A stretch of 12,666 nt of DNA, taken from assembly GCF_003334315.1 (NCBI RefSeq), contig NZ_QOWR01000083.1; one strand, given 5' to 3'. This document shows positions 845-8,646 of the stretch, piece after piece. The stretch is from Escherichia coli. Its GTDB lineage: Bacteria > Pseudomonadota > Gammaproteobacteria > Enterobacterales > Enterobacteriaceae. The position numbers and the translations under genes were made by a program. How positions within the stretch are numbered: position 1 is the first letter of the stretch; each line of letters opens with the position of its first letter. The notes beneath the pieces were generated by a model that searched no databases, had not been told where the DNA came from, and worked only from the letters and a program-made list of their open reading frames with translations.

Positions 845-2326
845 ATGAGAATTCACTCACCGTACCCCGCCAGTTGGGCGCTGGCACAACGAATTGGTTA
901 TCTCTATTCAGAGGGCGAGATTATTTATCTCGCCGATACGCCATTCGAGCGGTTACTCGATATTCAACGTCAGGTTGGCCAGTGCCAGACCATGACCAGC
1001 TTGTCACAGGCTGATTTTGAAGCTCGGCTGGAAGCGGTATTCCATCAGAATACCGGTGAGTCGCAACAGATTGCGCAGGATATCGATCAATCCGTCGATC
1101 TTCTCTCGCTTTCGGAAGAGATGCCCGCAAATGAAGATCTCCTGAATGAAGATTCAGCGGCACCGGTTATCCGCTTGATCAATGCGATTTTGAGTGAGGC
1201 CATCAAAGAAACCGCCTCTGATATCCACATTGAAACCTATGAAAAAACAATGTCGATCCGTTTTCGCATCGACGGCGTTTTGCGGACAATTTTACAGCCA
1301 AACAAAAAACTGGCGGCACTGCTTATCTCCCGAATTAAGGTCATGGCTCGTCTTGATATCGCCGAAAAACGTATTCCACAGGATGGAAGAATTAGTTTGC
1401 GTATCGGGCGACGTAACATAGATGTCCGCGTATCCACACTGCCGTCCATCTATGGTGAACGCGCCGTACTCCGCCTGCTGGATAAAAACAGCCTCCAGCT
1501 TTCATTGAACAACCTGGGGATGACGGCAGCGGATAAGCAGGATTTAGAAAATCTCATTCAGCTTCCGCACGGTATTATCCTGGTGACAGGGCCGACAGGC
1601 TCCGGTAAAAGCACCACGCTCTACGCCATCCTTTCGGCGCTGAATACTCCCGGCCGCAATATTCTGACGGTAGAAGATCCCGTGGAATATGAGCTGGAAG
1701 GCATTGGGCAAACGCAGGTGAATACCCGTGTGGATATGTCTTTCGCTCGCGGCCTGCGCGCCATACTTCGCCAGGACCCGGATGTCGTCATGGTGGGGGA
1801 AATTCGTGATACAGAAACCGCGCAGATTGCGGTTCAGGCCTCGCTCACCGGCCATCTGGTACTCTCAACACTCCACACTAACAGTGCATCAGGCGCAGTG
1901 ACCCGGCTCCGCGACATGGGCGTCGAATCATTCCTGCTTTCGTCTTCCCTGGCAGGGATTATCGCGCAACGTCTGGTTCGTCGCCTGTGTCCGCAATGCC
2001 GACAATTCACGCCCGTATCACCCCAACAAGCGCAGATGTTTAAATATCATCAGCTCGCGGTGACAACAATTGGCACTCCCGTAGGCTGCCCTCATTGCCA
2101 TCAATCCGGCTATCAGGGGCGCATGGCGATCCACGAAATGATGGTGGTGACGCCGGAATTACGGGCCGCTATTCATGAAAATGTGGATGAACAAGCACTG
2201 GAGCGACTAGTCCGGCAACAACACAAGGCCTTAATCAAAAATGGCCTGCAAAAAGTGATAAGCGGTGACACCTCCTGGGATGAGGTTATGCGCGTCGCCA
2301 GTGCCACGCTGGAGAGCGAAGCATGA
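845..2326 (+). CDS. gspE: T2SS cytoplasmic ATPase GspE
   Basis: 493-aa ORF. Walker A motif GPTGSGKST, and a C-terminal tetracysteine motif (CPQCRQ...[12 protein letters not shown]) typical of GspE/PulE ATPases. RBS-like GGTGAGG about 10 nt upstream. Confidence 0.95.
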
Positions 2327-3519
2327 ATTATCGCTATCGCGCCATGACCCAGGATGGTCAAAAATTGCAAGGGATCATTGATGCTAACGATGAACGTCAG
2401 GCACGACTGCGGCTGCGTGAAGAAGGGCTTTTCCTGCTGGATATTCGCCCCCAAAAAAGTTCGGGAGTAAAAACACGTCGCCCGAGGATCAGCCATAGTG
2501 AACTGACGCTTTTCACCCGGCAGTTGGCAACCTTAAGCGCAGCGGCATTACCCCTGGAAGAGAGCCTTGCCGTAATCGGTCAACAAAGCAGTAATAAACG
2601 ACTGGGTGACGTGTTAAATCAGGTACGCAGCGCCATCCTTGAAGGGCATCCCCTTTCCGATGCATTACAGCATTTTCCCACGCTTTTCGATTCGCTCTAT
2701 CGTACCCTGGTAAAAGCGGGCGAAAAGAGCGGGCTGCTGGCCCCGGTGTTGGAAAAGCTGGCTGATTACAATGAAAACCGGCAGAAAATCCGCAGCAAGC
2801 TCATTCAGTCACTGATCTACCTCTGTATGCTCACTACGGTGGCGATTGGGGTCGTGATTATTCTCCTCACTGCTGTCGTGCCCAAAATTACCGAACAGTT
2901 CGTGCATATGAAGCAGCAACTGCCGCTGAGTACACGCATTCTTTTAGGTCTGAGCGACACGTTGCAACGTACCGGCCCGACATTATTAGCGACAGTGTTT
3001 ATTGTCGCTGTAGGTTTCTGGCTCTGGTTAAAACGCGGCAATAACCGCCACCGTTTTCATGCCATGTTGCTGCGCGTTGCGCTCATCGGCCCGCTGATTT
3101 GCGCCATTAACAGCGCACGCTATCTCCGCACTTTAAGTATTTTGCAATCCAGCGGCGTCCCTCTGCTGGATGGGATGAATTTGTCCACCGAAAGCCTCAA
3201 CAACCTCGAAATTCGCCAGCGTCTGGCAAATGCGGCAGAGAACGTTCGCCAGGGTAACAGCATTCATCTTTCGCTGGAACAAACCGCAATTTTCCCGCCG
3301 ATGATGCTCTACATGGTGGCCTCTGGCGAAAAAAGCGGGCAGCTCGGCACATTAATGGTCAGAGCCGCAGATAACCAGGAGACACTCCAACAAAATCGGA
3401 TCGCCTTAACGCTCTCCATCTTCGAGCCAGCACTCATTATTACGATGGCACTGATCGTCCTGTTTATTGTCGTGTCGGTACTCCAACCTCTTCTTCAACT
3501 TAACTCAATGATTAATTAA
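2323..3519 (+). CDS. gspF: T2SS inner-membrane platform protein GspF
   Basis: 398-aa ORF. Start overlaps the gspE stop (ATGA at 2323-2326). Hydrophobic segments and GspF/PulF-like sequence. Confidence 0.93.
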
Positions 3520-3528
3520 GGAAAGCAT

Positions 3529-7511: not shown

Positions 7512-7969
7512 TTAAATCATGGTGGGCAGAAAAATCCACATCGGAAAAACAGATCGTTGCGGCACTGGCGGTTCTCTCGCTCGGCGTTTTTTGTTGGCTT
7601 GGGGTGATAAAACCGATAGATACCTACATTGCAGAGCATCAGTCCCACGCGCAAAAAATTAAGAAGGACATCAAATGGATGCAGGATCAAGCGAGCACCC
7701 ATGGTTTACTCGGTCATCCTGCGCTTACGCAGCCCATCAAAAATATCCTTCTCGAGGAAGCAAAACGTGAGAATTTGGCTATCACGCTGGAAAACGGCCC
7801 GGACAATACTCTGACAATTCATCCTGTCACAGCTCCCCTCGAAAACGTCTCCCGCTGGCTCACTACGGCACAGGTAACATACGGTATTGTTATTGAAGAC
7901 CTTCAGTTTACTCTTGCCGGAAACGAAGAGATCACCCTCAGGCATTTGTCCTTCAGGGAGCAACAATAA
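7508..7969 (+). CDS. gspM: T2SS inner-membrane protein GspM
   Basis: Start chosen at ATG 7508 (MIKSWWAEKSTSEKQIVAALAVLSLGVFCWLGVI), overlapping the gspL stop. This gives 153 aa with a single N-terminal transmembrane segment. The ORF-track start at 7484 is an upstream in-frame alternative. Confidence 0.85.
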   Translation: MIKSWWAEKSTSEKQIVAALAVLSLGVFCWLGVIKPIDTYIAEHQSHAQKIKKDIKWMQDQASTHGLLGHPALTQPIKNILLEEAKRENLAITLENGPDNTLTIHPVTAPLENVSRWLTTAQVTYGIVIEDLQFTLAGNEEITLRHLSFREQQ

Positions 7970-8646
7970 TGACAATGCTACTGCCGCTCTTCATTCTGGT
8001 TGGTTTTATTGCAGGTTATTTTGTTAATGCCATCGCCTATCACCTCTCGCCGTTGGAGGATAAAACGGCGTTAACGTTTCGCCAGGTATTGGTTCATTTC
8101 AGGCAAAAAAAATATGCCTGGCATGATACAGTGCCCCTGATACTTTGTGTTGCTGCTGCTATCGCCTGCGCCCTGGCACCTTTCACGCCCATCGTGACTG
8201 GCGCACTCTTTCTCTATTTCTGTTTCGTACTCACGCTCAGTGTTATTGATTTTCGCACTCAGCTCCTGCCCGACAAACTCACCTTACCGCTGCTCTGGCT
8301 TGGCTTGGTATTTAATGCGCAGTATGGATTAATTGATTTACATGATGCGGTTTACGGCGCGGTAGCGGGCTATGGGGTGCTGTGGTGTGTTTACTGGGGC
8401 GTCTGGTTAGTTTGTCACAAAGAGGGATTGGGCTACGGTGATTTCAAGCTACTGGCCGCTGCAGGCGCATGGTGTGGCTGGCAAACGTTGCCAATGATAC
8501 TGCTGATTGCCTCGCTGGGTGGCATTGGTTACGCCATCGTTTCACAACTTCTGCAACGCCGGACTATAACCACTATCGCATTCGGCCCGTGGCTTGCGCT
8601 CGGCAGCATGATAAACCTGGGGTATCTGGCCTGGATCTCTTATTAA
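7969..8646 (+). CDS. gspO: Prepilin (leader) peptidase GspO, type 4 prepilin peptidase family
   Basis: 225-aa polytopic membrane ORF. Start overlaps the gspM stop (TAATG). Contains GYGDFKLLAAAGAW, matching the GxGDxKL catalytic-Asp motif of this family. Confidence 0.9.
   Translation: MTMLLPLFILVGFIAGYFVNAIAYHLSPLEDKTALTFRQVLVHFRQKKYAWHDTVPLILCVAAAIACALAPFTPIVTGALFLYFCFVLTLSVIDFRTQLLPDKLTLPLLWLGLVFNAQYGLIDLHDAVYGAVAGYGVLWCVYWGVWLVCHKEGLGYGDFKLLAAAGAWCGWQTLPMILLIASLGGIGYAIVSQLLQRRTITTIAFGPWLALGSMINLGYLAWISY

Follow-up and report, generated by a model that had tools for sequence, protein, structure and literature searches.

The gsp operon and its gene junctions

The window analyzed here is a stretch of 12,666 nucleotides (nt) of Escherichia coli DNA (contig NZ_QOWR01000083.1, assembly GCF_003334315.1). 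An open reading frame (ORF) map and family searches show a same-strand gene run gspD'-E-F-G-H-I-J-K'-L-M-O, and the locus is the E. coli chromosomal, chitinase-associated type II secretion system alpha (T2SS-alpha, gspC-O) operon from the middle of gspD to gspO. Gene content and order are those of T2SS-alpha, the order being identical to that of K-12. Not all genes are intact: gspD is truncated by an IS1 element and gspK is frameshifted. Beyond gspO, the minus strand carries bfr, bfd and chiA (9586 to 12279) with ORFs of 158, 64 and 897 amino acids (aa), followed by the 3' end of tufA; this neighborhood agrees with annotated E. coli loci and with the chromosomal position of the operon. Of 5,426 complete E. 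coli genomes, 3,141 contain the gsp locus as judged with a 1.1-kb probe. Published work describes the gspC-O operon as cryptic, repressed by H-NS and connected with ChiA (endochitinase) secretion (PMC5797941, PMC3707838), and treats it as a single transcription unit (PMC5797941). Both ends of the window, IS1 on the left and tufA on the right, are multi-copy sequences, which makes it probable that the window is an entire short-read contig.

All gsp genes lie on the plus strand. The T2SS ATPase gene gspE (845 to 2326; TIGR02533, 656.8 bits, above cutoff) has the same start as in the PGAP and K-12 annotations. It is followed by gspF (2323 to 3519; TIGR02120, 541.5 bits), the major pseudopilin gene gspG (3529 to 3966; TIGR01710), the minor pseudopilin gene gspH (3974 to 4483; TIGR01708), gspI (4480 to 4857, 125 aa; TIGR01707, K-12 and PGAP annotation) and gspJ (4850 to 5437; family search). 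The gspK pseudogene (5430 to 6333) was delimited by alignment to intact gspK, with the NF037980 match in its 3' ORF only. gspL (6348 to 7511; TIGR01709) is annotated from ATG 6348, not from GTG 6345. gspM (7508 to 7969, 153 aa) encodes a protein matched by Pfam T2SSM, and gspO (7969 to 8646, prepilin peptidase) was taken from annotation. Every one of GspE, F, G, H, I, K and L passes its NCBIfam equivalog cutoff, and GspJ, at 63.2 bits, falls just under its own of 64.85.

An initial annotation had listed six overlapping junctions in this operon, and reading the sequence directly we found every one of them in place. Three are ATGA overlaps: gspE/F at 2323 to 2326 (gspE stop TGA 2324 to 2326, gspF ATG 2323 to 2325), gspH/I at 4480 to 4483 (gspH stop TGA 4481 to 4483, gspI ATG 4480 to 4482) and gspL/M at 7508 to 7511 (gspL stop TGA 7509 to 7511, gspM ATG 7508 to 7510). 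Two are 8-nt overlaps: gspI/J at 4850 to 4857 (ATGATTAA; gspJ ATG at 4850, gspI stop TAA 4855 to 4857) and gspJ/K at 5430 to 5437 (ATGAATAA; gspK ATG at 5430, gspJ stop TAA 5435 to 5437). gspM/O shares one base in TAATG at 7967 to 7971 (gspM stop TAA 7967 to 7969, gspO ATG 7969 to 7971). The resulting distances (-4, -4, -8, -8, -4 and -1) all fall within the range of termination-reinitiation pairs, which is -8 to +6 nt on the same strand. Short gaps separate the genes at the remaining four junctions (D/E +9, F/G +9, G/H +7 and K/L +14).

The initial annotation had also called the overlaps expected for this operon and of low novelty, and the same layout is indeed already present in the K-12 MG1655 reference annotation. 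The K-12 MG1655 operon (b3324 to b3335) is like the window in gene order, neighbors, gspI and gspM starts, and all junctions (+9, -4, +9, +7, -4, -8, -8, +14, -4, -1). The ten distances are identical in annotated K-12 MG1655, ES6 and SCEC020026, and three further E. coli sequences (~96 to 97% identity) show identical distances at the nine junctions covered. L006, a divergent Escherichia-like contig, keeps five of the six overlaps; its J/K junction reads TAAcATG (+1). The overlaps are thus native, already annotated gene boundaries fixed across E. coli.

Among E. coli same-strand gene pairs, 707 of 2,987 (24%) lie at -8 to +6, the commonest overlaps being -4, -1 and -8, and a further 7% lie at +9 to +12, leaving room for a Shine-Dalgarno sequence (SD) (PMC10666635). 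Six of ten gsp junctions in the -8 to +6 class exceed the 24% baseline (binomial P = 0.016); against a within-operon rate of 40%, which is assumed and not measured, the same count gives P = 0.17. The overlaps are real, non-random and modestly enriched, typical of operons for multi-subunit machines and not unusual.

Start codons of gspI and gspM

A mechanical ORF list starts gspI at 4441 and gspM at 7484, in both cases upstream of the overlap, as the initial annotation had pointed out. Its proposal that the overlaps mark the true starts agrees with the evidence from several sides, and both genes carry the short start in the K-12 annotation. For gspI, the correct start is 4480. Translation from 4480 yields a canonical prepilin leader of six residues (MNKQSG) with the attributes of a class III (prepilin) signal peptide: a short basic leader, Gly(-1), a hydrophobic helix and Glu(+5). 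Position 1 of TIGR01707 falls on the Gly that ends the leader (residue 19 when counted from the long gspI start). Mature GspI would be expected to start with the N-methyl-Met of MTLLEV whichever ATG is used. Annotated leaders of 13 other pseudopilins (from the gsp operon here, pO157 etp and Legionella lsp) are 5 to 9 aa long, and the 19-aa leader produced from 4441 is an outlier against them. The substitution pattern points the same way: in L006, the substitutions within 4441 to 4479 are synonymous in the gspH frame in three of three cases and non-synonymous in the gspI extension. A search of solved structures for the GspI start returned only truncated soluble domains, which are silent on N-termini. 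No good SD precedes either candidate start (-2.9 kcal/mol at 4480; -2.5 kcal/mol with a spacer of 2 at 4441), and the ATGA overlap is therefore the most plausible initiation route for gspI.

The gspM start at 7508 rather than 7484 is well supported, though not proven. ATG 7508 is preceded by AAGGA at a 9-nt spacer (-6.1 kcal/mol), while ATG 7484 has a value of -2.8 kcal/mol at an unusable spacer of 1. The Pfam T2SSM profile begins at the short form, its position 2 corresponding to residue 8 in the long ORF, and database GspM forms with complete N-termini are 153 to 154 aa long. A homolog search with the long GspM yielded little beyond E. coli relatives; its two remotest hits (L007 and L008) were discarded as error-ridden assemblies with fragmented genes. 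The solved-structure search gave no GspM matches.

Two observations speak against the short starts: the few gspM substitutions in 7484 to 7507 do not separate the frames, and the ATGs at 4441 and 7484 are both kept in six of six Escherichia sequences compared. The conserved ATGs would fit an alternative in which the upstream ATGs are real or additional starts, producing longer isoforms and depriving the H/I and L/M overlaps of their role as initiation sites. One of the substitutions in the gspM extension leaves the extension-frame protein unchanged, and one database GspM protein (P0001) has been called longer. Conservation of the upstream ATGs, which we considered as a test of start usage, proved uninformative because both codons sit inside gspH and gspL. 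Besides the outlying GspI leader and the three non-synonymous changes in its extension, the lack of an SD at usable spacing ahead of either upstream ATG and the register of the Pfam and NCBIfam profiles, which start at the short forms as K-12 annotation does, make this alternative highly improbable. A clear frame-specific substitution signal was obtained for the gspI extension only.

Beyond annotation hygiene the overlaps mean little: they confirm the curated gspI and gspM starts. The same logic flags a probable mis-annotation of etpI on pO157. The annotated etpI start (ATG 10246 in L004) gives MTLLEV with no prepilin leader, whereas GTG 10228 (region 10228 to 10248) overlaps the etpH stop codon as GTGA and gives MKGQEG followed by MTLLEV. 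Judging from these codons, the -4 H/I overlap is probably conserved in pO157 etp and the annotated etpI start is probably wrong.

Proposed translational coupling at the overlaps

The initial annotation took the overlaps to indicate translational coupling. As a reading of the gene layout this is a reasonable inference, E. coli -4/-1 pairs being known to be coupled, but it needs qualification in that four of the six overlapped starts are preceded by SDs of their own. In the proposed mechanism, a ribosome ending the upstream gene would immediately start again at the overlapping ATG (termination-reinitiation) at E/F, H/I, I/J, J/K, L/M and M/O. Such coupling would tie together the output of neighboring subunits, namely GspE/F, the GspH-I-J-K minor pseudopilins and GspL/M/O, and would probably matter most for gspI with its almost absent SD. 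The four gaps (+7 to +14) leave SD room for independent initiation; gspE, gspG (AAGGA, -6.1 kcal/mol) and gspL (AAGGA, -6.0 kcal/mol, spacer 4) have one, and gspH has a weak one (-1.0 kcal/mol).

E. coli pairs with -4/-1 overlaps have been reported to be coupled by termination-reinitiation, tightly so in every case tested in reporter systems; coupling falls off steeply with distance and is nearly abolished at a spacing of ~20 nt, and overlaps of this kind are overrepresented among genes for subunits of heteromeric complexes (Huber et al., 2019, 2023; PMC6728339, PMC10666635). The coupled pairs in those studies belong to the same overlap classes as the gsp junctions (-4 ATGA, -1 TAATG and -8), and most have an SD located within the upstream gene. 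For them coupling was measured; for gsp it is read from the layout of the sequence. In Vibrio cholerae, the fimT-pilW-pilX-pilV overlaps have been read as coupling that fixes stoichiometry (PMC13249403).

Several points weigh against termination-reinitiation in the gsp operon. The SDs ahead of gspF (-6.4 kcal/mol, spacer 7), gspJ (-6.5 kcal/mol, spacer 5), gspM (-6.1 kcal/mol, spacer 9) and gspO (-7.4 kcal/mol, spacer 7) are such that independent initiation could suffice; that of gspK is intermediate (-4.6 kcal/mol) and that of gspI (-2.9 kcal/mol) is near background. The J/K overlap is not invariant, as it becomes +1 in L006 without loss of either gene. The Aeromonas caviae exe locus keeps some close junctions (D/E -1, E/F +1, L/M -4 or -1) whereas the spacers near its pseudopilin genes are longer or ambiguous; this locus is unannotated and its starts are ambiguous, and it was used only to show that the overlaps are not universal. 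The operon is also silenced by H-NS in the laboratory (PMC5797941). The first three of these points (Aeromonas exe lacking most of these overlaps) would be accounted for if the overlaps were by-products, left by compaction of the genome and by stops and starts drifting through mutation, with no regulatory role and with SD-directed independent initiation throughout. That the enrichment is not significant at the assumed 40% rate would also be expected in that case. Yet the tested E. coli -4/-1 pairs were all tightly coupled, gspI is essentially without an SD and must nevertheless be made, and the I/J and J/K overlaps recur as far away as Legionella. We regard the by-product explanation as unlikely.

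The Legionella comparison was made with the Legionella adelaidensis lsp genes, in which G/H is -11, H/I -4, I/J -8 and J/K -11. The pO157 etp genes as annotated show D/E -1, G/H -4, I/J -4, J/K -4 and L/M -14. Consecutive minor pilin or pseudopilin genes overlap by 4 to 11 nt in pO157 etpH-K, Legionella lspH-K and V. cholerae, with exact lengths that differ from those of gsp. Tight H-I-J-K packing is thus recurrent, not universal. A T2SS-like locus on a Comamonas plasmid was tried as a further comparison and set aside as not comparable, having gspF only with unannotated neighbors.

Coupling might also work mainly by unmasking, in which the upstream ribosome melts a hairpin that hides the downstream ribosome-binding site, instead of re-initiating itself. 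Compared with shuffled sequences, the regions at the starts of gspE, gspF and gspJ fold more stably (z = -2.9, -2.4 and -2.3). One candidate is a hairpin at the gspD stop and gspE start (about 828 to 862), in which the gspE SD sequence GGUGAGG pairs with CUCACC downstream of the AUG and the gspD stop codon is enclosed. The 70-nt window from 805 to 874 has a minimum free energy of -20.6 kcal/mol (z = -2.9), and one of 200 shuffles was as stable. The hairpin core is kept in L006, although no compensatory change was found there. The start regions of gspI, gspK, gspM and gspO show structure at or below that of shuffles (z = 0 to +1.2), and since ten regions were tested, a z value of about -2.9 is borderline. 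We rate unmasking as the main mode of coupling as quite unlikely. A mixture of two modes, termination-reinitiation at the six overlaps and unmasking at gspD/gspE, with minor long GspI or GspM isoforms as a separate possibility, seems doubtful and has a slim chance in our estimate. If it were true, synthesis of GspE would require translation of the secretin gene right through to the stop codon, the gspE SD and AUG both lying in the hairpin.

A scan for internal promoters and terminators gave no signal above chance in the operon, and an Rfam scan found no element. The first of these results, along with the published account of gspC-O as a single unit, is indirect evidence that neighboring genes share a transcript. 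We consider it probable, with good confidence, that the overlaps are native and served by termination-reinitiation, that gspI and gspM start at 4480 and 7508, and that the operon is decaying in this isolate.

Decay of the operon in this isolate and neighboring features

The initial annotation implied an intact operon, a picture that could not be upheld: gspD is cut by IS1 and gspK is frameshifted. These are the differences from K-12 MG1655, the window lacking 80 bp of gspK and having gspD truncated at nt 1323. The left end of IS1 occupies positions 1 to 204 on the minus strand, with the terminal inverted repeat and the 5' part of insA reading leftwards, the element being cut by the window edge. 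It is identical to IS1A of ET450 at 203 of 204 nt (99.5%). The remaining 3' fragment of gspD (gspD nt 1323 to 1953; 205 to 835, plus strand) is 100% identical to ET450 gspD and was mapped on the intact gspD of SCEC020026. IS1 adjoins gspD nt 1323 at 204/205, exactly where the window departs from intact gspD; it replaces the first two thirds of the gene and parts gspE-O from the gspC promoter side. The exact junction was absent from all complete E. coli genomes searched. In four genomes (ET450, ET151, S30 and HH194M), gspD is interrupted about 545 nt upstream of this point by an IS1A with matching orientation (in ET450, L003 7487 to 10215). The junction in the window could be an independent insertion or the result of an IS1-mediated adjacent deletion, which would have removed about 545 bp from an ET450-like state.

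The gspK gene is 904 nt long compared with 984 nt in the intact allele, and the two align without any difference apart from a single gap of 80 nt. This deletion, placed between 5533 and 5537, is flanked by direct repeats matching at 9 of 10 positions (GCCAGCtTCA/GCCAGCcTCA) and fits replication slippage. Translation from 5430 runs for 39 codons to a TAA at 5547 to 5549, and the gspJ/K overlap therefore leads into a 39-aa stub. The remaining 253 codons (5572 to 6333) are in another frame and match the NF037980 profile at positions 73 to 304 only. After the premature stop, 798 nt are left untranslated before gspL, which has its own SD; polarity on gspL-M-O is possible from this arrangement. A 58-nt junction probe found the deletion in one of the 5,426 complete E. 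coli genomes, namely ES6, in which PGAP labels gspK as frameshifted.

ES6 (NZ_CM184335.1) came from frog-farm sediment in Shantou, China, and differs from the window at three positions over the shared stretch from 205 to ~12489: 4793, 11877 (in chiA) and 12395 (intergenic). At 4793 the window differs from ES6 and from other genomes, and as a result residue 105 of GspI is Arg instead of Gln. In ES6, gspD is intact and an IS1B sits between chiA and tuf; in the window it is gspD that carries IS1, and the chiA-tufA spacer resembles that of K-12. The rare gspK deletion is a lineage marker common to the window and this one frog-farm isolate.

With IS1 in gspD and a deletion in gspK, the overlap chain cannot yield a working secretion machine here. 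The operon in this isolate is decaying by the ordinary gene decay of a cryptic operon, which is the sole strain-specific content of the locus. The T2SS-alpha operon here should be annotated as non-functional (gspD::IS1, gspK 80-bp deletion), and ChiA secretion by the T2SS-alpha route is consequently not expected. The gsp-alpha operon has been damaged independently elsewhere: gspL has an internal stop in an ST1193 strain (L012, 4429 to 5592). In L006, gspO is split into two ORFs (10462 to 11138), and the IS1A in gspD of ET450 is a further case.

In the neighboring region, four diverged copies of a direct repeat (about 180 nt, spacing 303 to 324 nt) occur in the 5' part of chiA (11101 to 12216, minus strand); they presumably encode repeated N-terminal chitinase domains. 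The chiA-tufA spacer holds an AT-rich 20-nt inverted repeat that is 90% complementary (12427 to 12472). Adjoining it, just 3' of the tufA stop codon, is a strong GC-rich terminator hairpin (12520 to 12547).

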